Positions 1 to 16,914 of a stretch of 16,914 nt of DNA are shown here, in pieces; the first letter of the stretch is position 1, and the number at the start of each line of letters is the position of its first letter. Origin of the DNA: Candidatus Heimdallarchaeota archaeon (lineage in GTDB: Archaea; Asgardarchaeota; Heimdallarchaeia; Heimdallarchaeales; Heimdallarchaeaceae). Location of the stretch: assembly GCA_018238545.1 (NCBI GenBank), contig JABCTC010000061.1, positions 1 through 16,914 on the forward strand. The letters run 5' to 3'. The notes below the pieces were generated by a model. That model was not told the origin of the DNA, searched no databases, and saw nothing but the letters and a program-made list of their open reading frames with translations. Position numbers and translations under genes: made by a program.

Positions 1-2
1 TC

Positions 3-674: not shown

Positions 675-678
675 TTAA

Positions 679-701
679 CTTTTATTTTTTCAATTTTTTT
701 T
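679..701 (+). terminator. Oligo-T archaeal-type terminator
   Basis: T runs (ctttttattttttcaattttttttt-like) directly after the stop at 674. Confidence 0.45.
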
Positions 702-804
702 GAATAATATTAATACTTCTTGGGAGAATTTTATTGTTTATTCTAATCCATTAAGGTATGCCGAATTATTATTATAGAGAAAATAATACTATTCATTGGG
801 ATTC

Positions 805-822
805 AGACAATAAGTATTGTCT
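805..822. promoter_or_regulatory. Palindromic operator-like site AGACAATA-AG-TATTGTCT
   Basis: Perfect 8-bp inverted repeat with a 2-nt spacer, about 40 bp upstream of the ATG at 863. Confidence 0.45.
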
Positions 823-862
823 TATACTTTGAATTCACAAGAAATATCCCGGTGGAAAAGGC

Positions 863-1039
863 ATGAAAGAAAACCAAATAACTGAACAAAACTCTGAAAC
901 TAGAATAGAAGAAGTATTGAATGATAATATTGTAGATAAAAAACAAATCAATCCAGTATTGAAGGTGATTTTTCTAGGTATATTAACTCTCTTAACTATT
1001 ACATCTGTTGCAGCTTTAAATTTTTCAGAAAAGAAATAG
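863..1039 (+). pseudogene. 58-aa N-terminal fragment of a membrane-anchored protein (not in ORF track)
   Basis: MKENQITEQNSETRIEEVLNDNIVDKKQINPVLKVIFLGILTLLTITSVAALNFSEKK*. GGTGG RBS-like site at 851-855; acidic N-terminus followed by a signal-anchor helix; ends abruptly where the opposite-strand USP fragment begins. Confidence 0.55.
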
Positions 1040-1242
1040 ATGACATCTATTTTAGTGTTGAAATGTTTGTTTAACTCTCCTGCTATTAGTATTACGGTTC
1101 TAGATTTTGCTGTGCCATCAACAATGATCAAAGCTTTCTCTATAGGTGGTTGCTCAATTTTAACAGAAGGGAGGAGCTCAGAAATCTTTTTTAGAGTATC
1201 TTCTAAAATGACCTTCTGTTTATTGGGATCCATAATGCTCAT
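1022..1242 (-). pseudogene. Universal stress protein (USP)-like N-terminal fragment
   Basis: IEKALIIVDGTAKSRTVILIAGELNKHFNTKIDVIYFF matches the USP beta1-alpha1-beta2 pattern (kkILVavDGS..s..al..a..la......l.vlhv). The rest of the 135-aa ORF (835-1021) is the antisense of the 863 gene. Confidence 0.55.
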
Positions 1243-1326
1243 TACGCTTCACTAAAAAGCAAACCTAAAAAAGTTTTAGATATGAATATCAAAATATTGC
1301 TCTTTAAGGGGTTGTAGCTTTGAAAT

Positions 1327-1971
1327 ATGATGTGTGTAGAATTTTCTTGTATTGTGATAGATGGACATGGATTAGCATCAGTTATTCTTTCTTACAATAC
1401 TTCTGCAGGATGGACAGATATCCCAATGACAGAAACAGAAGAAAATAGATATTCTGTCAGTCTTACGAATTCGGAATCACTTCACTGCATTCTGTATAAG
1501 ATTTCCGCAACTGATAGTTTAGAAAATACCCAGGTAAGTACAACACGTGAACTAATCTTTCATGAAACGATTTTACCTGAAGTAACAGACATCAAACTTG
1601 ATCCTAAAAGGCCTAAGAGCGGGGAAGAAGTGGAAATATCCTTTAATGCTTATGATTCATCTGGATTGAAAAAAATCGTTTTTTCCTACAATTTTGAAGG
1701 AATTTGGAAGAACAAATCAATATACGATGTAGAACAAGAACATTTCAGTGTGATTCTCCAGATACCTGAAGAAGGAAGTGTTATTCAGTTCAAAATTTAT
1801 GTATTTGATGTTTGGGAAAACTGTTACATAACTGAGATAATTTCTGTTGATTTAAACGTTAGTTCCACAGATGTTTCGCCACTATTTATTGTATTAGCTA
1901 TTACATTTTTGTCTTCAACTTATCTGTTGAGTAAGAGAAATGGTAGAAAAAACAGGTTCAACAAGAACTAA
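1327..1971 (+). CDS. Surface protein with two Ig-like repeats and C-terminal TM anchor (probably 5'-truncated)
   Basis: Two repeats of D..G...V.LSY.....W....(M).......Y/F.V.L.......I.Y/FKI...D...N; C-terminal hydrophobic helix plus basic tail; no signal peptide, and an in-frame TGA at 1321. Confidence 0.65.
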   Translation: MMCVEFSCIVIDGHGLASVILSYNTSAGWTDIPMTETEENRYSVSLTNSESLHCILYKISATDSLENTQVSTTRELIFHETILPEVTDIKLDPKRPKSGEEVEISFNAYDSSGLKKIVFSYNFEGIWKNKSIYDVEQEHFSVILQIPEEGSVIQFKIYVFDVWENCYITEIISVDLNVSSTDVSPLFIVLAITFLSSTYLLSKRNGRKNRFNKN

Positions 1972-2078
1972 CAAACTTTTCTATCAAACATTTTTTCTTT
2001 TTTTGATCACTTCTCTTAAATTTAACATTGTGATAAGATATAGAAAGTCTATTTAATGAACAAGAGGTTAAAATAAAT

Positions 2079-2900
2079 ATGCCTAATATAGAGACTAATG
2101 ACATCATGACATACTATGAAATTCAGGGACAAGGGGACCCCCTCATATTCGTTCATGGAGGTTTAGTTACTTCTACTATGTGGCAATATCAAGTAGATTA
2201 CTTTTCTAAGTTCTATAAAGTTATTACATATGATATCAGAGGGCATGGAAAAACAGGAATTTCACCATTAAGAAAATATTCCATTGAATTATTTGCAGAT
2301 GATCTAAAAAAATTAATTGAAAAATTGAAAATAACCAAACCTATTATATGTGGGTTATCCTTGGGTGGAATGATTGCGCAAGCTTATGCCACGAAATACC
2401 TGCAAGATTTGAAGACACTAATCTTGAGCGATACTGCCATTTCAACCTCTTTAACATGTTGGGATAAACTTATGGTTTACATTTTATTTCCAAAATGGAT
2501 AATGATACCGACATTGCGTATGATGGGTGTGAGAAATTTTATCAAGTTTTCCTTTTGGTTTGCAAAATTAACAAGAGGAAAAGAGTGGATTGGCAATAAA
2601 GAAATTGAGGAATATGAAAGAAATGAAATGCTGAAAATGGACAAAAAAGAGTATTTGAAAGTATTCGGAGCCATTTATGATTTCAAACTTCAAGATTTAT
2701 CTAAAATAAATTTGCCTACTTTGGTTCTTAATGGTGAGAATGAATCAAAGTCCGTGCATTATCATGCAGAAGTAATGAAAAATTTAATGCCAAATTGTAA
2801 ATCAGGAATTATACCTAACGCGGGACATACTTCAAACCTTGAAAATCCCAAGGAATTCAATAAAGCTTTGAAAAAGTTTCTTAATACACATCAAAATTAA
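2079..2900 (+). CDS. Alpha/beta-fold hydrolase (enol-lactonase/MenH-like)
   Basis: FVHG oxyanion motif, YDIRGHG, nucleophile elbow GLSLGG, LVLNGENE, catalytic His in AGHTSNLENP; GAGGT RBS upstream. Confidence 0.92.
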   Translation: MPNIETNDIMTYYEIQGQGDPLIFVHGGLVTSTMWQYQVDYFSKFYKVITYDIRGHGKTGISPLRKYSIELFADDLKKLIEKLKITKPIICGLSLGGMIAQAYATKYLQDLKTLILSDTAISTSLTCWDKLMVYILFPKWIMIPTLRMMGVRNFIKFSFWFAKLTRGKEWIGNKEIEEYERNEMLKMDKKEYLKVFGAIYDFKLQDLSKINLPTLVLNGENESKSVHYHAEVMKNLMPNCKSGIIPNAGHTSNLENPKEFNKALKKFLNTHQN

Positions 2901-3039
2901 AAAAATCTTCATCTCTACTCATAGCTAGTGAATTTTGGAAAAATTACTTAAATGTTATGCTTTCTTGAGTTAAATCAAATTCTTCAATAACAATATGTCA
3001 TTGCATTAAAGAAAAGCAATGTTTCTATTCAATTTGGAT

Positions 3040-3053
3040 AAACTTTAAATAAA
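3040..3053 (+). promoter_or_regulatory. Archaeal TATA-like promoter
   Basis: AAACTTTAAATAAA about 40-50 bp upstream of ATG 3093; AGGAG RBS at 3079-3083. Confidence 0.4.
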
Positions 3054-3092
3054 GCGAAACACTGCTTGTATTAAGTTAAGGAGCGGAAGAAT

Positions 3093-3641
3093 ATGGAAAA
3101 ATGGAAGGAAGAAATGTCTGCTATTCAAAGTGATATTGGTAGAGAAAGAAGAGCCACTTTTACAGCTCTTCCCGGTATTCAACCTTTGCTACCAACAGAC
3201 CTCGATCAGAAGAAAAGTCAGTTACAAGCTATAATTGATCGGTATCAAAACGGTGTAGTTCCCCAAATGAAGAAAGAGGGAAGAAATAACTTGATCTTTC
3301 ACAGCATCTATTATGCATTATTAACTGTATTTGCTGTGTTATCGTTTTTAAATGTAGGAACAGATGTGATTGCTCTACTTGGAACAATCGGTTTAACTGT
3401 AGTGGGAGGAGGTATTGATTTGCCAGCTATGATAAAAAGAATTATTCAAATGGTGAAACACATGCCTCTTCTAGAAAAATCAGTTAATTATTTCAACTTA
3501 GAACTAGGTTTAGCAAATGACTTTGAAACACTAGACAAATTAGAGGAAACACTAGAAAAGATTTCACATAAATCATTATCGGATTACAAAGAGTTCATCA
3601 AAATACTAATAGACATTAAGGAAATAGAAGATAATCGATAA
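3093..3641 (+). CDS. Hypothetical membrane protein with two TM helices
   Basis: Hydrophobic hairpin (LIFHSIYYALLTVFAVLSFL / VIALLGTIGLTVVGGGI) flanked by charged helical regions; own RBS and terminator. Confidence 0.7.
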   Translation: MEKWKEEMSAIQSDIGRERRATFTALPGIQPLLPTDLDQKKSQLQAIIDRYQNGVVPQMKKEGRNNLIFHSIYYALLTVFAVLSFLNVGTDVIALLGTIGLTVVGGGIDLPAMIKRIIQMVKHMPLLEKSVNYFNLELGLANDFETLDKLEETLEKISHKSLSDYKEFIKILIDIKEIEDNR

Positions 3642-3678
3642 CAAGATTTCTTGGAAATCTTGAATTTTTATTTTTTTC
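3642..3678 (+). terminator. Stem-loop plus T-tract terminator
   Basis: Perfect 9-bp stem CAAGATTTC-TTG-GAAATCTTG (3642-3662) immediately after the stop, followed by ttttta ttttttt. Confidence 0.65.
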
Positions 3679-3794
3679 AATATGATAGCAATAATTTTGA
3701 ATCACAAATGGGTTCTAGAAGTGAATAGCTGAAACATACTTTCATATACTCAAATGAAGTATTTATCTTCAATAAATATCTCAGAGGTATAATC

Positions 3795-4751
3795 TTGTTA
3801 AAGGCTGTTGATATAACTAAAGTCTATCCCTCAAATAGAGTAAGAGCATTAGAAAAATTTTCTATTGATATCAAACCTGGTGAGATAATGGGTTTACTCG
3901 GACCGAATGGAGCTGGTAAGTCAACTTTTGTGAGAATTGCTGTTGGAGTCTTGGATAGAGATTTAGGCTCATTATCAGTTTGCGGATATGATTCTGATTC
4001 AGAGAGGAAGAAGATCTCAAATTTAGTTTCATGGATTCCTCAAGAGGGAACCTCTAAGATGATTCTGAATAGAACTGGGCGAGAAAATATAATCTATTAT
4101 TCTTGGATAAAAGGATTATCGAGAAAAGAATCAGAACGAAGAATTGATGAGCTTTTGGAGAAATTGAATATTGACAAAAGGATATTAAATAAAACCTATC
4201 GTATTATGAGTGGAGGTCAAAAACAGTTAACTAACATTATTAATGGCTTGATTATGGATTCAAAATTGTTGTTCTGTGATGAGATATCTGTAAGTATTGA
4301 TCCAATTATAACAAAGTCAATTTATGATTATCTCAGAGAATACACCTCTGATGGACGCGCTGTTCTTCTTACTTCACAAAATATATCTGAAGTGGAAAAT
4401 CTTTCAGATCGAATAGCAATAATTCAATCTGGAAAGTTAGTGGCACTTGATAAACCACGAGAAATTTCTAAAAAAATACTGAAATATGAGGTAATTGATC
4501 TGATATTTGAGAATGACGTAGTTGAAAATAAGGCTTTTTCAAGTTTTAATTCTGAGTTAGAAGAACAAAAGTATTTTCAATCCGAAGAGCTCAATAATAA
4601 TGTTCTCCATATTAGGTCAGATAATGCTAATAAACTACTCAAATCTATCCTGGTTTTACTAGAGAAATATTCCTTGAATCCATCGATAGAATCTGGTAAA
4701 GCTAATCTTAGCATGGCTCTTCAAATGTTGAAAAAGGAGGAAGAAAAATGA
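3795..4751 (+). CDS. ABC-2 type exporter ATP-binding subunit
   Basis: Walker A GPNGAGKS, Q-loop WIPQE, signature MSGGQKQ, Walker B LLFCDE; TTG start after GAGGT. Confidence 0.93.
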   Translation: MLKAVDITKVYPSNRVRALEKFSIDIKPGEIMGLLGPNGAGKSTFVRIAVGVLDRDLGSLSVCGYDSDSERKKISNLVSWIPQEGTSKMILNRTGRENIIYYSWIKGLSRKESERRIDELLEKLNIDKRILNKTYRIMSGGQKQLTNIINGLIMDSKLLFCDEISVSIDPIITKSIYDYLREYTSDGRAVLLTSQNISEVENLSDRIAIIQSGKLVALDKPREISKKILKYEVIDLIFENDVVENKAFSSFNSELEEQKYFQSEELNNNVLHIRSDNANKLLKSILVLLEKYSLNPSIESGKANLSMALQMLKKEEEK

Positions 4752-5590
4752 AAACTTTTTATGCAAATTTCTGGAGAGAAATGAAATACAATCTCGGTCG
4801 GAGAGGTGTATGGATGGGACGATTGGTAAATGTTTCTGTCTCCATACTTACAGCTTTTGCAATGGGAATCATCTACTCTTTCAGTTCTGATGCTCAATCG
4901 ATTGTGGGAATAGCTAATGTAGGCTTATTTCTTTTAACTGGTTTTTTCTTACAGTATTTAGTTCTTTCAAGTGTAACTATAGCCCCAAATACTTTTTGGA
5001 GTGATATAAGGAATGGATCTTTTGAATTCATTTTTTATTATGAATTTAGTATCTCTGAATATATCTTTGGGATTTACTTTGCCCAATTCATTATAGATTT
5101 CGTTATTTCTCTACCTTTTCTAATAGCAATTATCATCGTAGCAGCAATAAATTCAATTCCAGTTATTTTAATCATCGCTTTCATAGGTTTTCTCATTTTT
5201 TCTTTCTTATGTTTATTTTCTATTACAATGTTGTTCGCTTCACTCTATGTTCTTAGTAAACAATTTATGGGTTATCACGGAGCTGTTACTTATATAGCCT
5301 ATTTCGTATGTGGTGTCTATTTCCCCATTTTAGGATATCTCTCTCTCTTTGGACAAACAGCAGGATGGGCGATAATTGGAATAATCTCTATTTTTCCATA
5401 TACACAAGTATTTGATATTGCTAGATATATTATTTTTGGTTCAAGTTACACCCTCGCCTATCCTGCACTTTGGGTTGCTTTTCTGATAATGATTTCCAGT
5501 TCGATTATTTTTTATTTCTTATCATTAATTATTTTCAGGAAAGGTTTCAAAAATCTGAGAAAGGAAGGGTTCGCAGCTTACCGTTACTAA
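4748..5590 (+). CDS. ABC-2 type exporter permease
   Basis: About 6 TM helices, DIRNGSFE motif (E..GT.E-like), late FP/P..Y motifs; ATGA overlap with the ATPase stop and GGAGG RBS. Confidence 0.88.
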   Translation: MKTFYANFWREMKYNLGRRGVWMGRLVNVSVSILTAFAMGIIYSFSSDAQSIVGIANVGLFLLTGFFLQYLVLSSVTIAPNTFWSDIRNGSFEFIFYYEFSISEYIFGIYFAQFIIDFVISLPFLIAIIIVAAINSIPVILIIAFIGFLIFSFLCLFSITMLFASLYVLSKQFMGYHGAVTYIAYFVCGVYFPILGYLSLFGQTAGWAIIGIISIFPYTQVFDIARYIIFGSSYTLAYPALWVAFLIMISSSIIFYFLSLIIFRKGFKNLRKEGFAAYRY

Positions 5591-5660
5591 TTATCTCACC
5601 CAGAAAATTTAATATCAAGTTATACTACTTTCTAGAAAGAGTTGAATTCGAGGGAATAAA

Positions 5661-6764
5661 ATGAATAAGGAAGAACAACCATTAACCCCTACATTGCCTT
5701 ACGTTTTTCAAACCAAAGTTACTCAACAAGGCATTATAACAATCCCTTTCTCTTTGAAATTAGTTTTAGATAATCATTATCTGTTCAACTTTCAACCTCT
5801 GAAAAGTGAAATCATTTATTCCCAGGTTAAACAGATAAAACACTCAGGACAAAGACAATATGTTTCTTGTCGCATTAAATCTCCTTTCTTACAAAAGGGA
5901 GATGAAGTAAAGGTTACCATAGTCAAGGAATTTAAAGCTTCAGAAGAGTTTACTGTTGATGATGAAGATGAAGAGTATTCCCTTCTTTTTAACCAAACTG
6001 TTAGATGTTTGTTCCTGTACTCTTTTCAAGAGAAAGATGAAATCTTAACCGCAGAAGAGAGCAAGGACTTTCTAGGAGAGCATCCAAATTTCACTAGGCA
6101 TGAGTTTATCAAGAACTCCCTTGATCTGCTTAATAAGAAAGATGATATATTCACAAAAGAGGAAAAAGAATTCTTTGATATATTACGTTTCAAAAATTAT
6201 GCGGTAATTAGGTTCGTTGGGAAAAAACGCGCTTTGAGTTTTGATGTCCTTCAGCAAAAACCTTCAGAAGAGGCAAAGAAAGCCTATGAAACACATATCC
6301 CATTTGTCTTTATTGTGCTTACGAAGATTGATTATACGCAATTTTTACTCTCTCAACATCTTAGGACTAGGTTCAAACTCTTTCTAGATAAATTTCAAAG
6401 TGTGTCATCTTATCTTCCTTATGTGATTAAGGAGTTTTCTTCACTTCTACAGAGCGATATATTTGAGATAATGACAAAGTTTGATGATAGTACAAGAAAA
6501 TTCAATAGCCTTGATGATGTGAGATTCTGGTTTTTTATACCAGCTGAATATCATGATTTAATCAAGAAAATCCAGATGGAATTTTACTCAGGAAAGAAGT
6601 TTGTAAAAATAAACGAGTTGATAGAATCAATGAAAACAGAAAAGGGAAACACTGAGGCAAAACAACTAGTAGTTAATGCAATAGAATGGTTGTATAGGCA
6701 CCAAGTAATCAATGTAAGAGAGATGGATGGAGAGAAAATAATGGAGATATATAAGATTGAATAA
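5661..6764 (+). CDS. Multidomain putative regulator: N-terminal AbrB/SpoVT-like DNA-binding region, C-terminal winged-helix-like region
   Basis: TKVTQQGIITIP..LK..L and LQKGDEVKVTI resemble AbrB/MazE swapped-hairpin motifs; acidic linker EEFTVDDEDEEY; C-terminal VKINELIESM...VVNAIEWLYRHQVINVRE resembles wHTH. Confidence 0.5.
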   Translation: MNKEEQPLTPTLPYVFQTKVTQQGIITIPFSLKLVLDNHYLFNFQPLKSEIIYSQVKQIKHSGQRQYVSCRIKSPFLQKGDEVKVTIVKEFKASEEFTVDDEDEEYSLLFNQTVRCLFLYSFQEKDEILTAEESKDFLGEHPNFTRHEFIKNSLDLLNKKDDIFTKEEKEFFDILRFKNYAVIRFVGKKRALSFDVLQQKPSEEAKKAYETHIPFVFIVLTKIDYTQFLLSQHLRTRFKLFLDKFQSVSSYLPYVIKEFSSLLQSDIFEIMTKFDDSTRKFNSLDDVRFWFFIPAEYHDLIKKIQMEFYSGKKFVKINELIESMKTEKGNTEAKQLVVNAIEWLYRHQVINVREMDGEKIMEIYKIE

Positions 6765-7563
6765 ACACAACAAGAAGATAAATTCTCAAGTCATAAGCTT
6801 CTATTCTTATAGAGGTGGAACAGGAAAATCAACCATCGCTTCGAACCTTGCTATCATCTCCTCAAAAAAATACAAAACAATTCTAGTTGATTTAGATCTC
6901 TATTCTCCTCAATTAACATATATCTTTGAGAAAACAAGTGAGAACTACATAAATGATTATCTGCACTCCTCTCTCTTTACATCTAAACATGCTAAAAATC
7001 GAATTGAAAGCTTAGATGAGGTGATTTGTGAAAGCTCGTTTAAGAACCTTGATTTAGTATTGGCAAACCCTAGGATGTCTCTTACTGATAACACAATTTT
7101 ACATGATGAAATAATTACAAAAAAGGTTTTTCCTTGCTTCCAACATATGATAGAATTACTCAAAACCCAATATGAAGTAATAATCCTCGATTGCCCTGGA
7201 GAATTGAATTACTATACACTTAATGGTATAGCTGTAGCAGATAGAGCTGTAGCAGTAAGTATTCCCACCATTGCTAATGTTAAGGGAATGATAGAGTTAT
7301 TGAAAATTTTTAGTTCTGCACTTCAAGGTAAAAAAACTGATATTATTCTGATGATGATAACCCCAAGACCATCAAAAACAAAAGTAGAAAAATTAGAGAA
7401 ATGGAAACAAGAACTGGAAAAATATTCTCTAGAAAATTATCTTTGTTTTGATTATTCAGAAAATATTGCTTATAGGCATCAATTTGAAGATGACTTCTTT
7501 TATCTCCCAGAAGAAGAGGAGTATCAGAAATTGGAAGAATATTTGGCAGCAATTCTGAAGTGA
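6757..7563 (+). CDS. MinD/ParA-family (SIMIBI) ATPase
   Basis: Deviant Walker A SYRGGTGKST, switch I ILVDLDLYSP, Walker B YEVIILDCPG; overlaps the upstream stop. Confidence 0.9.
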   Translation: MNKHNKKINSQVISFYSYRGGTGKSTIASNLAIISSKKYKTILVDLDLYSPQLTYIFEKTSENYINDYLHSSLFTSKHAKNRIESLDEVICESSFKNLDLVLANPRMSLTDNTILHDEIITKKVFPCFQHMIELLKTQYEVIILDCPGELNYYTLNGIAVADRAVAVSIPTIANVKGMIELLKIFSSALQGKKTDIILMMITPRPSKTKVEKLEKWKQELEKYSLENYLCFDYSENIAYRHQFEDDFFYLPEEEEYQKLEEYLAAILK

Positions 7564-8891
7564 TTAAAATGGAACTCAAAACTTTACTATCACTGAAGAA
7601 AAAGGGAAAATGGATACATTATAATCTGATAAATCAAACAATGGTAAGAACTTCTCTTTCTCCAACAGAGCTAGATAGATCTCCTGCAGAAATCAAGAAA
7701 GAGCTGTTGTATGGAACAGATAAGGATTTGTTAATTAAATCTAATAGACATTATTATCAACAAGTTAGAGAAGAAATTACGAAGAGAAGAGAGTGGAACA
7801 CGCCTTTTCTATCAAGAAGTGAAGTAACTGTAACCTTATGGTACGATTGTAACTTTGCTTGCCCATATTGTTACCAAAAAGAAGAATATTATGATAAGGC
7901 AAAAGAAAGTGATGAAATCAATATTGAAAAGGCCATAGAATTCTTCAGAATAAAATCAAAAAATGGTGAGTTTCCTCCAAAAACTGTAGTTTTGATAGGT
8001 GGTGAACCTTTACTAAAAGGTAAGAAAAATAGAGATACTATAATAACACTCCTGAGAGCTCTCAATAAACTCTTTCTTGGAATTGAAATACACGTTATAT
8101 CCAATGGATATTATTTAGAAGAATATGCGGATACGCTTTCCCAATTCAATAATTTGAATATCGGATTAACAATTACGCTAGGATCTACAAGAAAGAAACA
8201 CAAGTTTGAAAGAATACTTAGAACTAAAAATTCAGAAGATACTTTTGAAAAAATATTTGTAGGCATGAAGTATTTTAGGAAGCAAATTCCTAAAGGTGGA
8301 ATTGTTATTAGAATGAATTTTGGACCAGATTACAACGAAGTAAATGAAACTACGGATTTGATGTATTTGATTAAAGAAGAAATACCCAATGTGAAATTTG
8401 AACTTTCTCCAGTCGTCTCATTTTCTAACCATCAAGAAATCAGTCTAGGTTTTTTCAAATTAATTAAGGAATTGATGATAAGCGAGGACTTCTCAAAGTC
8501 TTTCAAAATGAAATTAAATGATAATCTATATTACTTGTTACGTAATTCAATTCCACAACTAACAAAAAAAGAAATTTCATCAAAAAAGAAAATATGTAGT
8601 GCTGTTCTTTTAACAACAAACTATGATTTGTTTTCTGATTTCCAAATTCAACCTTGCGAGGATTTTAGAAACTATGAGAGTATAGATGGCGTCAATTTGA
8701 AGATATCAGAAGCTTTCATTGAATATCTTGATAAGAGAGTTGAGCAATGTATAGACTGTCCATTTTTTGTGGGATGTATCTCACATCCCTGTGAGATAGT
8801 AAAAAGAGCAACTCTAGAAAAAAGAGTTTGTTATGGGAGAGAACTATTACCACTTTTACAAATTATTGAAGAATTTTATTTAACAAAATAA
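7560..8891 (+). CDS. Radical SAM/SPASM-domain peptide maturase
   Basis: CNFACPYC (CxxxCxxC), GGEPLL, ISNG; C-terminal Cys array C-x19-C (QIQPC)...CIDCPFFVGCISHPC...C typical of SPASM; about 80-aa N-terminal extension compatible with a RiPP recognition element. Confidence 0.9.
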   Translation: MIKMELKTLLSLKKKGKWIHYNLINQTMVRTSLSPTELDRSPAEIKKELLYGTDKDLLIKSNRHYYQQVREEITKRREWNTPFLSRSEVTVTLWYDCNFACPYCYQKEEYYDKAKESDEINIEKAIEFFRIKSKNGEFPPKTVVLIGGEPLLKGKKNRDTIITLLRALNKLFLGIEIHVISNGYYLEEYADTLSQFNNLNIGLTITLGSTRKKHKFERILRTKNSEDTFEKIFVGMKYFRKQIPKGGIVIRMNFGPDYNEVNETTDLMYLIKEEIPNVKFELSPVVSFSNHQEISLGFFKLIKELMISEDFSKSFKMKLNDNLYYLLRNSIPQLTKKEISSKKKICSAVLLTTNYDLFSDFQIQPCEDFRNYESIDGVNLKISEAFIEYLDKRVEQCIDCPFFVGCISHPCEIVKRATLEKRVCYGRELLPLLQIIEEFYLTK

Positions 8892-8940
8892 TAGGATAAA
8901 TTTAAAAGAGTGTATGTCACTTAGAAGACAAGGTGATTCA

Positions 8941-9132
8941 ATGGGAAGAAGAGATAAAAATACAGAAGATAAATTAACATTTGAAGTAATTATAAGAAAT
9001 ACAGTAACAAGTGGAGCACAATCTAGTATTCAAACTGTTAGTGATCCACCTAGTGATTGTCCTGGTCAGTGTGGGCAATCTGATTTAGGATCTTCGCTTA
9101 GAACCTCAGCCTGTGATATATTATTGTGGTAA
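8941..9132 (+). CDS. Putative RiPP precursor peptide (63 aa)
   Basis: AGGTGA RBS at 8931-8936 favours ATG 8941 over 8914; MGRRDKNTEDKLTFEVIIRN leader-like part plus S/T/G/D/C-rich core (DPPSDCPGQCGQSDLGSSLRTSACDILLW); directly downstream of the rSAM/SPASM gene. Confidence 0.75.
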   Translation: MGRRDKNTEDKLTFEVIIRNTVTSGAQSSIQTVSDPPSDCPGQCGQSDLGSSLRTSACDILLW

Positions 9133-9164
9133 TAAGCAATATTTAAGTTATCGAAAATATCTAA

Positions 9165-10853
9165 TTGGTGTTTACAATACTATTCTCTTTTATTTATTTG
9201 AAGAAAAATCATCCATTAAGAACATGTATACTAGAAACTAGTAAACTTTTTTGTGATTATTCAGCTTCAGATTCTGATTTTATAGAATCTGTAAGAAAAA
9301 TATTAACTGCTTCGGAATCTCAATCATTAAAAGAAGAAGAGTTGTATACAATAAAATCTGCTGTAGATTGTATAGAAGTATTTCTAGCAGATTATGATTT
9401 TAAAAGGTTTGATGAAATTTGTTCAAAAGCAAAATCTGTAGGATATCGTGAAAGCTTTATTGATTTGCTACTCTTAAAAGGTTTGATTTTAAGTTCTTTG
9501 AGTATGTCTGGCTTAAATCGCAATTTTAGAATAAGCGAGAAAGAGAAGATTTTCTCTTTGTTAAAAGAAGTTGATTTACAAAAAAACATCTATTTTGATT
9601 TAATATATGGAAAATATCTCTTCATAAAAGGGAATGAGCAACAAGCGTCTATTCTTTACGAAGATCTAAAAAACAGAATCGCTCAAGATGACTGTGCTTC
9701 ACAGGTTATCATTTTGAATCTTCTCTCTTGTATATATGAACGTGAGCCTTCCAAACAGATTAGTATCATAAACGAGGGGATGAATGGTACTTGCTTTTAT
9801 TGGAACTTCGTTATTCAATATATAGACTTCTTAACACAAAGGGGAAAATATGTAGAATTACTTCAAGAAGGTTCTATCTTCTTGCAAAAATTAGATGAAA
9901 ATAAAGTAATAGAATTACTTCACAAAAAAGCACATATATTAAACCATATGATCAAAGCATCTTATAAATTGAATGAACAAGCTAAAATGAATCATTACAC
10001 CCAGCTTTTTAGAGAAGCTCTAGACGAACTTCCGGATGATAACCATGGATTGAAGAGAAATTTTGAGTTTCTTAAATTCACACATGAAATTTTGTATCAA
10101 GCATTTTATGAAGAAAAATTACAAATTGATTTGAGTGATAAGAAAATCCAAACTTTTAGTAAAAATCATTATGTGAAAATGTTGCAATCATTTCTTATAG
10201 TGAACCCACTAATAAATAGACTTATTCAAGATGGTGAGTTTGATCAAGCTTCTCTTTTTATAAATAATATAGAGAAAGGAAAAGGATACTCACAATCTAC
10301 TGATGAGTTAATAACTTTCATGAAATACTTCTCTCTTTCACTTCTCATTGATAAATCCCTAAAATGGAAGAAATATAACAGTAAGAATTATGAAGGGAAT
10401 CAGACTGAAGTGGCTTTAGCTTATTTAGAAGAAGGTACAACATATCTAGGTGAACTAGATTATTCATTCAAAATAGCTTCTTTTCTTCAAGAAATTATCT
10501 TGAAATCGAGATTAGGTAGATTGAATGAAGTTAAAGAAACAGTTTTAGATGATATACAACTAACTGAAGGTTATGATCGTATACTTGCACTGATGGTTTC
10601 ACTTCTTTATTATTCTGGTAATGAGGAGATAGAAAAATTTCACAAAACTAAACAAGTGTTGCTTTTTGAATTAGACAAATATAAGGAACTGAGTTCTTAC
10701 AGTATTTGGAAAGAAAATATGAATAACCTCTTTTCATTCCTAGATGTTAAAGATAAAGTTCTTTCTACAAGGAAAACAACCTTCTTAGATATAGAACAAA
10801 TTAAGTCTTATACAACCTTCTTACAAAATCAGATCCATAAACAAATGGTATAA
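9165..10853 (+). CDS. Large alpha-helical (TPR-like) repeat protein
   Basis: Amphipathic helix pairs with TPR-like signatures (YGKYLFIKGNEQQASILYE; FLTQRGKYVELL; LIQDGEFDQASLFI; SRLGRLNEVKE). Start codon uncertain. Confidence 0.6.
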   Translation: MVFTILFSFIYLKKNHPLRTCILETSKLFCDYSASDSDFIESVRKILTASESQSLKEEELYTIKSAVDCIEVFLADYDFKRFDEICSKAKSVGYRESFIDLLLLKGLILSSLSMSGLNRNFRISEKEKIFSLLKEVDLQKNIYFDLIYGKYLFIKGNEQQASILYEDLKNRIAQDDCASQVIILNLLSCIYEREPSKQISIINEGMNGTCFYWNFVIQYIDFLTQRGKYVELLQEGSIFLQKLDENKVIELLHKKAHILNHMIKASYKLNEQAKMNHYTQLFREALDELPDDNHGLKRNFEFLKFTHEILYQAFYEEKLQIDLSDKKIQTFSKNHYVKMLQSFLIVNPLINRLIQDGEFDQASLFINNIEKGKGYSQSTDELITFMKYFSLSLLIDKSLKWKKYNSKNYEGNQTEVALAYLEEGTTYLGELDYSFKIASFLQEIILKSRLGRLNEVKETVLDDIQLTEGYDRILALMVSLLYYSGNEEIEKFHKTKQVLLFELDKYKELSSYSIWKENMNNLFSFLDVKDKVLSTRKTTFLDIEQIKSYTTFLQNQIHKQMV

Positions 10854-11131
10854 TGGGGTTGAACCAAGTACTGTTGATTTTTTTTCGGTTTATTAGTAAT
10901 TTCTTAATTATAAATCAGAAATTCAATTTTTTTGACTTATGACCACAATGATGCAATAAACTGAAATTCAGACCTTGTTTAAAGGTCTACTTCTTGGAAC
11001 TTCCTCCATATTAGAAGTAACAAGCATTTACATGATAATGCAAATCTATCTCACGTGTCAAACGAAACACATTTATTTTGTATATTATGGTAAATTTCTC
11101 ATTCTTTTTTACTAAAAATCAGAAAATATAT

Positions 11132-11147
11132 AAACTTTATAAATAAA
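11132..11147 (+). promoter_or_regulatory. TATA-box-like promoter of cas operon
   Basis: AAACTTTATAAATAAA (TTTATAAA at 11136-11143), nearly identical to the element upstream of 3093. Confidence 0.45.
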
Positions 11148-11188
11148 CTCAATATTGAATATTTGTTCATCTATTTATTTAACTCAAC

Positions 11189-11201
11189 TGTCAGTATGAC
11201 A
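11189..11201. promoter_or_regulatory. Palindrome TGTCA-GTA-TGACA upstream of cas8
   Basis: Perfect 5-bp inverted repeat between the TATA-like box and the cas8 start. Confidence 0.35.
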
Positions 11202-11233
11202 TAAATACGTATCAAAATTGGGGAAGAATAAGG

Positions 11234-12745
11234 TTGAAAGTAAAAGAATTGAAAATATCAACATATTCAAATTTTTGGTTAGATAATGGCATTGTTTCAC
11301 TCTATTCTTTAATTAAAAATTGTAAAGGTATTTCCAATTTAGAACTAACAAATGAAGAATTGTGTTTTACAATTAATGATTTAACTATCTTCATAGATCA
11401 ATTGAGAAACAATATACTTCGAGAAGTGAACCGAGTTCTTTTCTTCCAGATTCAAGATCCACAAACTAAACTTATCAAAATTGTAAGAAGACAGTATGTA
11501 ATTTCACAACAAGTAAAAGGTGGAGCACTTAAAGAAAAGATTTTCAATGAAGAACATGTAAAGCAACAGCTTGAGGATGCTTTTGATTTTGATACAAAAA
11601 AGAAGACTTGCGTTATATGTGGTAATGAATATTCAAAATCAAAGAATTTAACACAGACTGTATTCCCACTAGTTACTAAGATGAAAAGTCTAGGAGGAAT
11701 AAGAGGGAATAAAGAATATATTGATGTATGTCCAATATGTTATTTAGTTTCAGCTTCAGCCTGGTTGGATAATAATATTTATACAAACATCGATCCGAGT
11801 ACGAAAGGTTTCTCAATATTGCTTCTTCCAATTCAAAATAATTTGGTGAACTATTATAAAGTTAAAAAAATGATAAGAACTGTCACTGATATGCAAACCA
11901 CTAAAATGTCTAGCATATTAGTGAAATCAATAACTCAAGATAGGAAAAAAAGAAAAGTCAGAGGATATGAAAAATATTCCACATTATTATTACTTCTAGA
12001 AGAGTTGATGCATAAATTAAGAGAACCAGATTCTGATCCATTTTCAGCTAAGTTGAATGATTTAGTAAACACCGAATGGTATTCTCTAACAATCCCCCAT
12101 GGAGGTATGAAGAATATTAAAACAGAAATCATATCTATAGATCATAGGATTATTAATTTATTGAATACTCTTATTGAGAAGTATAACAATTTAAGAATAT
12201 ATTCAGATTTTGTTGACAAAATCTATGTTACATCTGATGGGAAACCAGATTTTGCTAGTGGCAAGAAGATAAAAGAATCTTTAGCCATGGCTCTAATTAA
12301 AAATGATCTAGATTTGTTCTGCACAACTATTTTTCCTTCTAGAGGTTTAACTGTATCATTTTCTTTTAGCAATATTGATTTTCTATTATACGAATGGAGG
12401 TTAAGAATTTTGAATTATGGAATGGAAAAACTCGAAGTCTTTAAAAAAACTGCAAACATCATTGCAGAGGTAAGTAAGAAAAACACAGGTCTCTTTTATA
12501 GATTAGATAAAACTAGAACTTTCTCTGATTTTCTTGAATCAATTAAAGATGCTGCACGGGGTATGGTTAGTCTAAGCTCATCTGCTGAACAAGGAGAAAC
12601 AAAGTATAAAATATCCCCAACAGCTTTTGATGATTTTCTGACATTACTACTTGAAAATCAACAACATTGGAAGGATATCAAGAGTATTTTAATTATTTAC
12701 ACAGCAATGTATTATTCAATAAAAATGAAAAAAATAAGAGGTTGA
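11234..12745 (+). CDS. cas8a1: Type I CRISPR large subunit Cas8a1/Cst1 (CXXC-CXXC family)
   Basis: N-terminal NFWLDNGIVSL, zinc motif CVICG...FPL...CPICY, helical Cas11-like C-terminus; first gene before cas7-cas5. Confidence 0.82.
   Translation: MKVKELKISTYSNFWLDNGIVSLYSLIKNCKGISNLELTNEELCFTINDLTIFIDQLRNNILREVNRVLFFQIQDPQTKLIKIVRRQYVISQQVKGGALKEKIFNEEHVKQQLEDAFDFDTKKKTCVICGNEYSKSKNLTQTVFPLVTKMKSLGGIRGNKEYIDVCPICYLVSASAWLDNNIYTNIDPSTKGFSILLLPIQNNLVNYYKVKKMIRTVTDMQTTKMSSILVKSITQDRKKRKVRGYEKYSTLLLLLEELMHKLREPDSDPFSAKLNDLVNTEWYSLTIPHGGMKNIKTEIISIDHRIINLLNTLIEKYNNLRIYSDFVDKIYVTSDGKPDFASGKKIKESLAMALIKNDLDLFCTTIFPSRGLTVSFSFSNIDFLLYEWRLRILNYGMEKLEVFKKTANIIAEVSKKNTGLFYRLDKTRTFSDFLESIKDAARGMVSLSSSAEQGETKYKISPTAFDDFLTLLLENQQHWKDIKSILIIYTAMYYSIKMKKIRG
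12410..12745 (+). CDS. cas11: Probable internally translated small subunit Cas11 (in frame within cas8)
   Basis: GGAGGT at 12396-12401 lies 8 nt before in-frame TTG 12410 (ATG at 12422); the product (107-111 aa) has the GLFYRLDKTRTFSDFLESI helical motif typical of Cas8 C-termini/small subunits. Confidence 0.55.
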   Translation: MNYGMEKLEVFKKTANIIAEVSKKNTGLFYRLDKTRTFSDFLESIKDAARGMVSLSSSAEQGETKYKISPTAFDDFLTLLLENQQHWKDIKSILIIYTAMYYSIKMKKIRG

Positions 12746-12749
12746 AAAA

Positions 12750-13673
12750 ATGAAAGATAAAATAAAAGGTATTAGCTTAACATGGTTATCAAAAGTAGAT
12801 CTCTCCAACTTAAATAGTGGAGAAGGAGGAAGCAATTATATTGATGTCAAGAAATTCAAAGCGAACAATATAGACTATCCATATGTTAGCGGACAAGCTA
12901 TGCGGCATTACATCAAATCAGCAATTAGAAGACTGGGTGCAGAAGGATGTATCTTAAATGAAAAAGGTGAAGGATGCCGAGATATTCAATCTTGTATAAT
13001 TTGTGATTTATTTGGTTTTATGTCTCCCAAAGCAAAAAGTGGGGCAGAAACAAGAATTTCTCCCGTAAAAGTGTCTCCAGCGATAGGATTATATCCATTA
13101 GATGAAAATATAACCGTAGATTTTCTAACAAGAAAGAAGTATAAAGGTGAAAAATATATCGGAGACATAGTTCATGTTGAACTTGCTCACAACCTTTATC
13201 GATGTGGAATTAGTATAGATATAAGAAGAGTTTCTGCTGAAGAAATTCCTAATTCAAGTGAAGCAAAAATTGAGCTTAAAGAATATGGAGGAATAGATCA
13301 AGCAAAAATTAGGATTAAATTGCTATTGCGAGCTTTATTATACTTAACCGAAGCTTCAAAACAATCTAGATTACTTACAGATTTCACACCAGATTTCTTG
13401 GTTATTACTTTTCAAAAGCACTTTTCAAACCGAATTCAAAAAGCTTTATCAATCCAAGAATACGAGAAATTAGATCTGGTTAGATTTGAAAGCATTATAA
13501 ATGATTTGAAGTTTGATGATAATATTATAATCGTGGGAATGCTGCCTAACACGATAAGAGAAGAGCAGAAAATTAAAAAAATCTTAGAAGAATCTGATAT
13601 CCCCATATTTAGTCCTAAGAAAGCTATTGAAGAATCAGTGAAATTGTTAGAAAAAATTGAAATATCTAGGTAG
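12750..13673 (+). CDS. cas7: Cas7/Cst2/DevR backbone subunit
   Basis: SNLNSGEG..N..DVKK, PYVSGQAMRHYIK, CDLFGFM, RISPVKVSPAI, KQSRLLTDFTPD motifs. Confidence 0.93.
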   Translation: MKDKIKGISLTWLSKVDLSNLNSGEGGSNYIDVKKFKANNIDYPYVSGQAMRHYIKSAIRRLGAEGCILNEKGEGCRDIQSCIICDLFGFMSPKAKSGAETRISPVKVSPAIGLYPLDENITVDFLTRKKYKGEKYIGDIVHVELAHNLYRCGISIDIRRVSAEEIPNSSEAKIELKEYGGIDQAKIRIKLLLRALLYLTEASKQSRLLTDFTPDFLVITFQKHFSNRIQKALSIQEYEKLDLVRFESIINDLKFDDNIIIVGMLPNTIREEQKIKKILEESDIPIFSPKKAIEESVKLLEKIEISR

Positions 13674-13674
13674 G

Positions 13675-14352
13675 ATGTGTAAATTGTTAGGTATACGATT
13701 TGATTTGGATCCTGTTAACTTTGTTTGCTTTAGAAATCCAATAACAAATAGCACAATATTAACCTACCCTATACCCCCTTTCACAACCATAATTGGATTA
13801 TTAGAATCTTGCTTAGGGAAACCATCGATTGAGAAACGTAATGATTTGAAAGAATTTCACCTTATAGATAAGGTTAGAATAGGATTACGAATTTTAGACG
13901 AAGGAAGTAAAAACAGAGAAATAGCCTTAATATTAAAGCTGAAAGAGGGAAGTGGGTCTTCACCTGTATTTAGAGAGTTTTTAGCATATCCAAAGTATAG
14001 AGTCTATCTTACTTCTGATAACAAAAGTTTACTTGAAAGAATTCACGGAGCTCTAAAAAATCCAAGACGGCCTTTATATTTGGGTTCATCTGATGACTTA
14101 GTTGATATTAGGAATATTAAGATGTTACCAATTCAGAAAGTTAAATCAAATTATATTGATGGTATTGGCTTTTACCCTTATCCTGATACTTCAACAATTC
14201 AGATACCATGGAAGTTTATGCAAATAGGAAAATCTTGGAATGTTGAAAAAGTACCTGTCTCAATACCAACCAGAGAGAAAATATTCTTTGATATCCCAAA
14301 GGAGGTATATGTGTTTGAAGAAGATAGAATTGAACTCTCACCCCCTAGGTAA
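13675..14352 (+). CDS. cas5: Cas5 (Cas5t/DevS-like)
   Basis: FRNP......TYPIPPFTTIIGLLESCLG, SPVFREFL, LKNPRRPLYLGSSDDLV; ATG at 13675 directly after the cas7 stop is the likelier start. Confidence 0.92.
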   Translation: MCKLLGIRFDLDPVNFVCFRNPITNSTILTYPIPPFTTIIGLLESCLGKPSIEKRNDLKEFHLIDKVRIGLRILDEGSKNREIALILKLKEGSGSSPVFREFLAYPKYRVYLTSDNKSLLERIHGALKNPRRPLYLGSSDDLVDIRNIKMLPIQKVKSNYIDGIGFYPYPDTSTIQIPWKFMQIGKSWNVEKVPVSIPTREKIFFDIPKEVYVFEEDRIELSPPR

Positions 14353-14530
14353 AGCAAATATTCATGGTTATGGGCAGACTCTCTGTGGTCATCAACGAGA
14401 TACTGTTATTTCATTTATGTATTTTCTAAAGCAAGAATCTGGATCAGTTAGAGCTTTCTGCAAAAGGTGGGCAATAGAATACAATCACTTTGTCCAAAAC
14501 ATGCTTTTTGTATGTTATTTTCATTGTTAG
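14309..14530 (+). pseudogene. cas3: Truncated Cas3 HD-nuclease N-terminus
   Basis: GGAGGT at 14301-14306, ATG 14309 (or TTG 14330); PLGK.....QTLCGH..D (first HD-domain His motif) ... LFVCYFH, then C* instead of the expected D.GK; position after cas5. Confidence 0.78.
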
Positions 14531-14855
14531 ACCTTCCCTTTGTTAGCAAGTTCAAGCCGTTCACGGATAGAAAAGCTTAAGTTTGACTCACGCTCCTCAA
14601 AATCAGCAATCGCATTGGTAATGTTAAAAAGCGTATTATTAAGCCTTATTATGGTATTGTTATAATCCATCAAAAGCCGTGCCTCTCCACCGGTTGCCTC
14701 ACGGGCCAGTTTCCGGCCACCAACGAACTCTTTGATAAAGTCCGCCTTAAACACAATATTGTTTCGTATAGTTTTCATTATACTACCCCCATTTTTGGAT
14801 TATTATAATTATCCAAGTAACAAGAAAATATAAGCCTAAAAATAACATACAAAAA
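14505..14855. repeat. 17-bp perfect inverted repeat pair (14505-14521 / 14839-14855)
   Basis: TTTTTGTATGTTATTTT at 14505-14521 and its reverse complement AAAATAACATACAAAAA at 14839-14855. Confidence 0.8.
14527..14778 (-). CDS. Hypothetical viral protein (83 aa, C-terminal coiled-coil-like)
   Basis: GGGGG RBS 7 nt before ATG; last gene of the minus-strand run, with its stop 2 bp from the cas3 His codon. Confidence 0.7.
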   Translation of the reverse strand: MKTIRNNIVFKADFIKEFVGGRKLAREATGGEARLLMDYNNTIIRLNNTLFNITNAIADFEERESNLSFSIRERLELANKGKV

Positions 14856-14923
14856 AACCACGTTGTCAAAAAATTAGTAAGTAGCGAAATTAAACCGTGT
14901 TCAGTCAAATAAACTGCAATCAT
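14783..14923 (-). CDS. 46-aa membrane protein (not in ORF track)
   Basis: MIAVYLTEHGLISLLTNFLTTWFFCMLFLGLYFLVTWIIIIIQKWG*; AAGGGGTG RBS; fills the gap between neighbours. Confidence 0.65.
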   Translation of the reverse strand: MIAVYLTEHGLISLLTNFLTTWFFCMLFLGLYFLVTWIIIIIQKWG

Positions 14924-14934
14924 AGGCACACCCC

Positions 14935-15141
14935 TTATTTTCTAATCAAGTCATGTTTCATTGCCCGGATAACGCCAGCAGGAAACCACTTTGTTTTTTT
15001 TACTTTAATAAGAACTTCGTCACCTTCAAACCTTACAATCTCACACCGGATATATTTTATACTTGAAGTATACCCGGCTAATTTAGGTGCATTCTTATCA
15101 AAAACAATCGCTTTGTGCATAAAATATAATGTTGTTTTCAT
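14935..15141 (-). CDS. Hypothetical basic viral protein (68 aa)
   Basis: GAGGTG RBS; tightly packed with neighbours. Confidence 0.7.
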   Translation of the reverse strand: MKTTLYFMHKAIVFDKNAPKLAGYTSSIKYIRCEIVRFEGDEVLIKVKKTKWFPAGVIRAMKHDLIRK

Positions 15142-15151
15142 GCCACACCTC

Positions 15152-15601
15152 TTAAAGTTTTCTTTTTATATAATTCACCAACCGGCCCAAACAATAAACG
15201 GGTAATGTAAAAATTGCAGTTCCAAACGAAAGCAAGTGAAAACATACCATAGCAAACAACCCCTTGTCTTTTACTGCCTGAACTACCTTTTTGTTTTTAA
15301 CCGCAAGGGCTTTCCTATCCGCCTCTCTAATAACATCTATAACATAACTTAAAGCAGCCGTGGCTTCTTTGGCAGTTACACCCTTATGCAAGGTTACAGT
15401 TACAGGCGTGTCATTATTTGTGAACTCATTTCTTGTGGCAAGTCCTATTGCAAACTTATCCTTAGAGCCCGGTTTGGCGGCCCCTATTCCAAAAGAGGAA
15501 CAGGGCAATATTACACACGTTGTGTTAAGCCGCCTCAAAACATCTATCCGAATCTTCTCCTCGTTTGTCAAACTATTATTTAATTCAGTTGTTGTTTTCA
15601 T
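15152..15601 (-). CDS. Hypothetical viral protein with C-terminal hydrophobic segment (149 aa)
   Basis: AAGGAAGTGA RBS; LFAMVCFHLLSFGTAIFTLPVYCLG segment followed by a basic tail. Confidence 0.7.
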   Translation of the reverse strand: MKTTTELNNSLTNEEKIRIDVLRRLNTTCVILPCSSFGIGAAKPGSKDKFAIGLATRNEFTNNDTPVTVTLHKGVTAKEATAALSYVIDVIREADRKALAVKNKKVVQAVKDKGLFAMVCFHLLSFGTAIFTLPVYCLGRLVNYIKRKL

Positions 15602-15616
15602 TTGTCACTTCCTTTT

Positions 15617-15826
15617 TTAGTATGTCATTCTAATCTGGTTCTGTTCTGTAAGGGTAGCACTGTAAAATAAATCATTTGACTTGCCATAGACACCATTCGC
15701 AAGGGCCTTAAAGTGATCACCGTCACCGTAATGTCCCTTATAATCACACGCAAGGCCTTTATTCCATAAAGTATCCCCCATCCTATCGTATACCGACATC
15801 TTATCCATACGTTCTTTTAGTGTCAT
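15617..15826 (-). CDS. Hypothetical viral protein (69 aa; start corrected from 15922)
   Basis: AGGGGG RBS before ATG 15826, which overlaps (ATGA) the stop of the upstream gene; begins MTLKERMDKMSVYDRMGD. Confidence 0.65.
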   Translation of the reverse strand: MTLKERMDKMSVYDRMGDTLWNKGLACDYKGHYGDGDHFKALANGVYGKSNDLFYSATLTEQNQIRMTY

Positions 15827-16005
15827 TCCGCACCCCCTAACGGCACTTTGTGGCCCTTTTTGTTCTTTCCTGATAAAACAATACCACGGCCCCCGCACTG
15901 GCTTGTGCCTTTTGCAGGACACTTCTCACAAGCCTGCAAGCCGTAAAACTGAACCGTCCAACACTCATCTGTCAAATTGCCTTGTTTGATGTTTAATACT
16001 TTCAT
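15823..16005 (-). CDS. Small Cys-rich viral protein (60 aa)
   Basis: AAAGGGGG RBS; C-x10-CxxC-x7-C pattern (ECW...ACEKC...QCGG). Confidence 0.7.
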   Translation of the reverse strand: MKVLNIKQGNLTDECWTVQFYGLQACEKCPAKGTSQCGGRGIVLSGKNKKGHKVPLGGAE

Positions 16006-16016
16006 AGATACCCCCT

Positions 16017-16244
16017 TTACTTTGCGTATAGTAATGTATTGTTTGCATTGCCAAAGCTTATAGGCAATACGAACTCCATTGCAAGTAAGTAGTTGTTAGC
16101 GCAAAGAGGACACACCACTTCGAGTCTATCTTTGCCCCTGTCTAACAACACGCCACCATTATCGTATTTCGCTTTGCATAGCGTGCATATAAAACTACCG
16201 ATAACCACGGGTCTTTTGTTATACTCAATAACCATATTGTTCAT
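16017..16244 (-). CDS. Small zinc-finger protein (CxxC-x21-CxxC)
   Basis: AGGGGG RBS; CTLC...VCPLC. Confidence 0.7.
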   Translation of the reverse strand: MNNMVIEYNKRPVVIGSFICTLCKAKYDNGGVLLDRGKDRLEVVCPLCANNYLLAMEFVLPISFGNANNTLLYAK

Positions 16245-16272
16245 AACGCCCCCTGTCTATTTAGAGTTAAGG

Positions 16273-16443
16273 TTATTCTTTGTCTAAATACGAAGGGTAA
16301 CAGGGCCTTCTTGGTTTAAGAGCACCACTTGAAAGAAACCAACGGTCTAACACCCGGTCAATTCCTTTTTCAAGCAAAGGAAGGCCACGGCTCACAAGTA
16401 CAACCCAACCAACGAAAACTAATATCCAGAATAAGAGTTCCAT
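16273..16443 (-). CDS. 56-aa membrane protein (not in ORF track)
   Basis: MELLFWILVFVGWVVLVSRGLPLLEKGIDRVLDRWFLSSGALKPRRPCYPSYLDKE*; AAAGGGGG RBS overlapping the end of the upstream gene. Confidence 0.65.
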   Translation of the reverse strand: MELLFWILVFVGWVVLVSRGLPLLEKGIDRVLDRWFLSSGALKPRRPCYPSYLDKE

Positions 16444-16445
16444 AA

Positions 16446-16844
16446 TTACCCCCTTTCAAGCCATATAACATCCGGCTTGCCATACGTTTTATAATCCCAT
16501 GAGACAGGGGCGGAGAGGTCATGCCACGGAGCCCGGCGGACAATCTTGAAACCAACACGTTCATAATACTTTCGTAAAAAACCGTCAAAACAAAAGATCT
16601 TGTTTGCGCCTTTACTTATGGCATAATCCATTGCTTCACGTCCGCAAAGCTTTGTTCCGGTATTGTTAAATAAGTTAAACAACTCTTTGTCATCAGTTAA
16701 TCCGAACCCAACACCGCCACCAATAGATACATACAAATCAGCTTTGTCAAGATATTCTTTTGTATGGACTGTTAAAAAAAACAACCGGTTACTAAAACAC
16801 AACTGTCTATTAAATTCTTTTGCATCTGTTTTAATGAATTCCAT
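16446..16844 (-). CDS. GNAT-fold acetyltransferase-like phage protein
   Basis: LFN...KLCGREAMDYAISKGA (motif A-like), CFDGFLRKYYERVGF (motif B, Y...GF), W....AP..WDY...GKPDV tail; AGGGGG RBS. Confidence 0.65.
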   Translation of the reverse strand: MEFIKTDAKEFNRQLCFSNRLFFLTVHTKEYLDKADLYVSIGGGVGFGLTDDKELFNLFNNTGTKLCGREAMDYAISKGANKIFCFDGFLRKYYERVGFKIVRRAPWHDLSAPVSWDYKTYGKPDVIWLERG

Positions 16845-16855
16845 AGCACCCCCTG

Positions 16856-16914
16856 TTATCTAAAAAAATACATTACTGCCAAGGTTACAATCAAGACCAA
16901 CACGGTTATAACTC
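16856..16914 (-). CDS. 3' end of a membrane protein (partial)
   Basis: ...VITVLVLIVTLAVMYFFR* ending just before the RBS of the GNAT gene. Confidence 0.5.
   Translation of the reverse strand, partial: VITVLVLIVTLAVMYFFR

Follow-up and report, generated by a model that had tools for sequence, protein, structure and literature searches.

A cas3 gene broken at its HD motif by tailed-phage DNA in a Heimdallarchaeota metagenome contig, very probably a chimeric join

Interspecies chimeric contigs were present in 69.4 % of the near-complete CAMI metagenome-assembled genomes (MAGs) obtained with MEGAHIT and in 20.5 % of those obtained with metaSPAdes (bioRxiv 10.64898/2026.10.15.759294). Among chimeras formed during MDA, more than 85 % are inversions, and most were primed by stretches of 2-21 nt (Lasken and Stockwell 2007, PMC1855051). 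Insertions that interrupt CRISPR-Cas loci in the cell have been documented as prophages in CRISPR repeats (Varble et al. 2021, cited in PMC10359306) and as IS in cas genes (PMC10359306), and type I systems without cas3 exist on mobile elements (bioRxiv 10.1101/154229). Viruses of Ca. Heimdallarchaeum have genes in common with bacteriophages; one of them, HeimV1, integrates by means of an integrase next to a tRNA gene, which was confirmed by PCR and coverage, and the CRISPR-Cas loci of these hosts are highly variable (PMC8813620).

The window analysed here is a complete contig of 16,914 nt (JABCTC010000061.1, positions 1-16914, hereafter C75) from a Heimdall-group Asgard MAG of 3.63 Mb in 128 contigs, 91.8 % complete and 4.2 % contaminated. 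It contains a cas3 gene that runs into phage DNA. In several respects it resembles the chimeras described for short-read MAGs: foreign DNA is present in one contig of a marker-passing MAG, the composition changes abruptly, a gene is cut in mid-frame and the native gene occurs in an independent assembly. It differs from these in that the join is accompanied by a 17-nt shared word in an inverted geometry. Short complementarity and an inversion near the join are traits of MDA template-switch chimeras, but these are mostly intramolecular, whereas C75 links two organisms, and an amplification of the sample is not indicated. With the prophage and IS cases the locus has the claimed outcome in common, an immunity disabled by insertion; those cases come with an integrase or transposase, with defined ends and with both junctions, none of which was found for C75. 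HeimV1 would have a host of the same family, and its bacteriophage-related genes are a further likeness, but the phage fragment in C75 comes without an integrase, a tRNA-adjacent site, or support by PCR or coverage. We consider C75 to be, with high probability, a chimeric join made in sequencing or assembly.

The cas3 reading frame starts with the ATG at 14309, has an AGGAGG motif upstream and ends with LFVCYFH, a cysteine and a stop codon, just as the sequence-only reading had described for the site where D-x-GK is expected. The first 215 nt of cas3 (14309-14523, plus strand), encoding the HD domain up to His72 of the HD motif, are the last host DNA. From there 2.39 kb of phage DNA (14524-16914) fill C75 to its end, and the far end of the element lies beyond the contig. 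The GC content is 30.9 % over 11234-14523 versus 39.4 % over 14524-16914. To the right of the junction the GC skew becomes negative and the coding strand flips, every gene being located on the minus strand. The change in composition and strand noticed in that reading is thus real, but its position at 14524/14525 had to be corrected to 14523/14524 after comparison with an intact allele: 14523 is the final host-matching base and 14524 the first foreign base. This first difference turns CAC into CAT, so that the histidine is retained. As a few bases may be common to both molecules at this point, the crossover itself may be located slightly left of 14523.

The genes preceding cas3 form one operon on the plus strand, as required for type I-B. 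They encode a cas8b-like large subunit of 503 aa with a CXXC-CXXC motif (11234-12745; PF09706 above cut-off), a Cas7 of the type I-B Cst2/DevR kind with 307 aa (12750-13673; TIGR02585 with 102.9 bits, above cut-off) and a Cas5t-like Cas5 of 225 aa (13675-14352; PF09704 and TIGR02593 above cut-off). The subtype model TIGR01895 scored below its cut-off on this operon. Cst2/DevR proteins of Methanococcales, Thermococci and Ca. Jettenia share about 50-54 % identity with this Cas7. An exact look-up of the Cas7 sequence retrieved a Logan contig of 6.9 kb (L015; run SRR32546279), which carries cas8b, cas7, cas5, a cas3 of 849 aa and cas6. Like the known type I-B operons of the Tneap/Cst type, this intact allele has the full set with cas7 Cst2/DevR and cas5t, while C75 is unlike them in its cut cas3 and absent cas6. 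Between 11001 and 14523 of the window 3523 of 3523 nt are identical to L015, the three complete cas genes included; L015 then keeps the cas3 frame. The 72 Cas3 residues of C75, the only cas3 codons in the window, are identical to the start of the L015 protein, which reads on with H-D-V-G-K, the predicted D-x-GK continuation. This Cas3, with HD nuclease and SF2 helicase, exceeds the cut-offs of TIGR01587 (281 bits) and TIGR01596 (50 bits), and Cas6 likewise that of its NCBIfam model. A second intact allele was found on a contig of JGI metagenome 3300040951 (L038): its sequence is identical to window positions 14100-14523 (424 nt) and to L015 over 2313 of 2313 nt, and its open cas3 frame extends over 701 codons until the contig ends. 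L015 and L038 provide the native continuation of the left side of C75, a feature by which a chimera is recognized.

Of the 45 other genomes in the order, 3 contain homologs of the intact Cas3, with 31-35 % identity. When 39 relatives were searched at the DNA level with operon and phage part, the only matches were by chance and about 50 nt long. A protein that clustered with the cas3 stub (P0132) was discarded as an unrelated protein of 38 aa.

These alleles also bear on the possibility that operon and virus-like genes constitute a single mobile element, a virus-borne type I-B Cascade without cas3 whose truncation has evolved. Such cas3-less systems have the precedent mentioned above. However, an allele in which cas3 and cas6 are complete matches this DNA with 100 % identity, hence without any divergence, cas genes are missing from all phage relatives, and the left 11 kb of the window look chromosomal, with close homologs named Heimdallarchaeota. 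This explanation is largely refuted by the identical intact alleles and has to be regarded as exceedingly improbable.

The remainder of cas3 and cas6 were absent from the MAG in a search of its contigs, which covers the binned contigs of a 91.8 % complete genome; searches with cas3 families retrieved just unrelated helicases below cut-off. Looking for the rest of cas3, as had been suggested, was thus successful in L015 and without success in the MAG. The missing part is compatible with a chimera as well as with a real insertion that has an unbinned far end. A strain-specific insertion is possible if L015 and L038 come from another sample than the MAG. That a tailed virus has truly recombined into the HD-motif codons of cas3 in the population of the MAG, with the intact allele persisting in other samples, is nevertheless unlikely.

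Neither a matching CRISPR array nor an adjacent cas1/cas2 was detected in the MAG; the search revealed only an array of four repeats on contig C26 and a cas1 fragment of 106 aa on contig C36. The array (C26 36260-36530, L014) consists of four identical 37-nt repeats with spacers of 39-41 nt and is situated in a plasmid-like island with no cas gene near. The cas1 fragment (C36 20604-20924, L023:1489-1809), the sole cas1 match in the MAG, is a 5' part that runs into an unrelated gene on the opposite strand and is possibly another broken or misjoined gene.

The foreign DNA had been called virus-like, and this is supported by its colinearity with short free phage contigs from other metagenomes (L016, L018, L025 and L026; 81-90 % nucleotide identity). 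All of its genes are on the minus strand. An 83-aa gene (14527-14778) has homologs of 75-78 % identity on the phage-like contigs L018, L025 and L026. It is followed by a hydrophobic, membrane-like ORF of 46 aa (14783-14923), conserved in the relatives, and by small genes of 68, 149, 69, 60 and 75 aa (14935-16244) that are colinear with L016 (90 % nucleotide identity) and L018 (81-83 %). The last gene encodes a GNAT-like protein of 132 aa (16446-16844; phrog_2563, E 2e-13), with distant matches annotated as acetyltransferase in Streptomyces phages; C75 ends 70 nt further on. The ORFs are intact and without signs of decay. Exact matches to these phage proteins are on record solely from C75, and a further piece of this phage was not present in the MAG, its small GC-rich contigs included. 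Neither the junction nor the phage genes nor cas5 gave anything usable in scans of contigs from IMG/VR, JGI metagenomes and GTDB; the single hit (L024) was rejected as a chance 22-mer in unrelated GC-rich DNA. The last 67 nt of the window (16847-16914) align to L016 with an upstream shift of about 400 nt relative to the adjacent DNA, thus the phage of C75 lacks two small genes of L016, an ordinary mosaicism of small-gene regions.

A larger relative is a 42-kb phage contig (L019; ENA ERZ23498622, scaffold_424), of which 20 kb were examined. It shares the GNAT-like gene (64 %) and the 75-aa gene (43 %) with the C75 segment and encodes a P22-like coat protein and portal, terminase, primase, RNA ligase, Erf, YqaJ and a Mom-like modifier. 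It also bears a long run of tiny genes. The best matches of its portal are in Vibrio and Shewanella phages. Run SRR13892597, one that carries this relative, originates from the Site F cold seep (PMC9357000). By gene content and gene order, the segment 14524-16914 is assigned to the small-gene region of a tailed phage.

Three of the relatives (L018, L025 and L026) span the junction position with 81-85 % identity, and in each of them the next gene is another small phage gene. They reveal a native continuation of the right side of C75 that differs from the cas3 sequence; none of the DNA found was identical to the phage DNA of C75. In C75 a purine-rich ribosome binding site (14540-14532) and an ATG (14524-14522) on the minus strand would represent the native start of this next gene, whose body is absent. 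The T and G of the ATG coincide with the final two host-matching bases. Ribosome binding site and ATG are at nearly the same spot in two of the three relatives and about 12 nt further on in the third. As a small phage gene starts here in the relatives, we infer for the phage side a cut where its next gene begins, with at least 2 bases shared with the host.

An integrase was encoded neither in 14524-16914, nor among the called genes near the junction point in L018, L025 and L026, nor within the examined 20 kb of L019, and cas genes were likewise absent from the phage relatives. The phage fragment looks adapted to a host different from this archaeon. Six of its seven genes are preceded by a strong Shine-Dalgarno motif, versus 11 % of 1358 long host ORFs. 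In tetranucleotide composition the segment is an outlier, ranking within the most extreme 0.2 % of 1452 windows, while the part of cas3 absent from C75, taken from the intact allele, is host-like. Among 398 other Asgard genomes, none was hit by the profile of the GNAT-like gene. The array on C26, the single one detected in the MAG, has three spacers, and these had no match to the phage. From these sequence features, the phage probably infects bacteria, though genes in common with bacteriophages are known from Heimdallarchaeum viruses as well.

The break exactly at the HD motif is real in the contig, and it is accounted for by a T-rich word of 17 nt common to cas3 and the phage membrane-protein gene. 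The host copy (14505-14521, plus strand; 13 of 17 bases T) is the exact reverse complement of phage positions 14839-14855, within the 46-aa hydrophobic ORF. In cas3 the word encodes Phe-Val-Cys-Tyr-Phe directly before the HD motif, in the phage Phe-Phe-Cys-Met-Leu-Phe. The location at the motif is due to the hydrophobic codons in front of it, which are T-rich like the codons of a phage membrane helix. Matches of 17 nt to the phage segment occur genome-wide with a frequency of 2.2e-6 per position; the identity at the junction is not a chance event. Both copies are native to their molecules: the host copy is present in L015 and L038, and the phage copy is exact in L026, with one mismatch in L018 and two in L025. 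At the junction position the phage relatives have no copy of the word. A role as phage promoter or terminal inverted repeat was dismissed, since the word lies in the conserved hydrophobic ORF of 46 codons and a promoter scan remained at chance level.

With this non-random identity at the junction, a temperate virus might be thought to have integrated site-specifically into cas3, with the core in the HD codons as attB, switching off interference while Cascade is kept. The remainder of cas3 is absent from the bin, as if located on an unbinned provirus end, and both the integrase-mediated integration of HeimV1 and the documented insertions into CRISPR repeats and cas genes provide precedents. The geometry is adverse. 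Between the junction and the phage copy of the word there are 317 nt, and this copy is inverted and lies inside the small membrane-protein ORF instead of beside an integrase. If the phage had integrated at a 17-nt core, the host word would be followed immediately by the phage DNA that lies behind the phage word; the order in C75 differs and is thus not that of an attL. Together with the lack of an integrase in the junction-spanning relatives and in 20 kb of L019, the cut of the phage side at a gene start, the Shine-Dalgarno usage and composition that indicate another host, and the intact cas3 of L015 and L038, this makes site-specific integration very unlikely. Of the features that a provirus would be expected to present, neither an integrase nor an att geometry nor an adaptation to the host is apparent in the sequences. 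The sequence-only reading had itself pointed out that integrase and att site were missing at this end, and the segment, its relatives and the position of the word bear this out. Its headline, a virus integrated in cas3 as an anti-defence event, is not supported: intact alleles exist, a search of the MAG gave no cas3 remainder, no cas6 and no second phage end, the phage looks suited to another host, and a further contig of the same MAG (C77, see below) combines several organisms.

An accidental capture of a phage fragment by microhomology within the cell, with deletion of the rest of cas3 and of cas6 in one lineage, would account for the absence of an integrase and for the lost genes. The shared word at the junction and the high variability of Heimdallarchaeum CRISPR-Cas loci agree with such an event. 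Against it, the phage DNA is undecayed, with intact ORFs colinear with free relatives, C75 ends in phage DNA and no return to host sequence was found anywhere in the MAG. Capture requires moreover that DNA of a foreign-host phage was present within the archaeal cell, and the MAG has other joins between organisms. We regard such a capture as highly improbable.

In the preferred explanation, a chimeric join, a Heimdallarchaeaceae-like chromosome with intact cas8b-cas7-cas5-cas3-cas6 would have been joined to 2.39 kb from the small-gene region of a tailed phage that co-occurs with it. The sequences present a native continuation on the left, a differing continuation on the right and a short shared sequence at the join, as would be expected for a chimera. 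The shared sequence comprises the 17-nt word in common with the nearby phage DNA and, by inference, two or more nucleotides, the TG in the ATG of the phage. The join was probably seeded by the 17-nt word. C75 is arranged as host word, 2 nt, 315 nt of phage DNA in opposite direction and the inverted phage copy of the word. Such an arrangement could result from a fold-back or template switch in amplification or library repair, seeded by the shared word. Alternatively, an assembler may have overlapped two dead-end contigs at a shared string of about 19 nt. When the phage segment was folded at minimum energy, its 3' end did not pair with the 17-mer, hence a fold-back is thermodynamically unsupported. 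Local inverted repeats across the MAG amount to 7 in all, and the joins of C77 have no inverted-repeat signature; these low numbers do not indicate a pervasive MDA fold-back. The smallest k-mer of common assemblers usually exceeds 17-19 nt. Thus a plain de Bruijn crossover at the shared string would need an extra step.

The chimeric join, which had been put forward as the alternative to integration, gains support from the intact alleles, the phage relatives, the shared word and from C77 as a second multi-organism contig. C77 opens with terminase and portal genes at 31 % GC. Midway through a transporter gene, at base 13533, begins a match to another Asgard family with up to 99 % identity; matches were obtained in 79 of 89 genomes of the group holding that family versus 0 of 29 in the host's own family. 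The transporter gene copies of that other family continue normally past the C77 breakpoint. At the end of C77 a shortened hdrA is followed by a bacterial msbA at 51 % GC. Joins were located near 11900, 13533 and 47700 (L010-L012), with genes cut at the joins, so that the contig is composed of phage terminase/portal DNA, another segment, about 34 kb of Thorarchaeia-like DNA and bacterial msbA. The Thorarchaeia-like part is up to 99 % identical to genome G348 in the part tested. C77 had been suspected from its GC step to be the far end of the provirus; it contains no cas3 remainder and is a different chimera.

Other regions of the window deserve mention in their own right. Between 3795 and 10853 there are genes for an ABC transporter (3795-5590), a radical SAM/SPASM protein resembling peptide maturases (7560-8891), a product of 72 aa whose C-terminal third contains three cysteines (8914-9132) and a helical protein of 562 aa, a candidate RiPP cluster of a Heimdall-group archaeon. 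The region of an alpha/beta hydrolase (1991-2904) is 90 % identical to C31:6174-7087 in the same MAG, and this pair represents either a recent duplicate or a second strain.

If the junction were true, a virus would disable CRISPR interference via the active-site codons of cas3 in a lineage close to the eukaryotes. It would be a case of viral insertion in cas3 itself and would tie a cold-seep phage group to a Heimdall-group host. As an artefact, the join in C75 serves as a warning only. Since C75 and C77 join several organisms, virus-host links, horizontal transfers and broken genes of this MAG need independent checks. The identical alleles hold cas3 and cas6, and the type I-B system of this lineage is therefore to be counted as complete.
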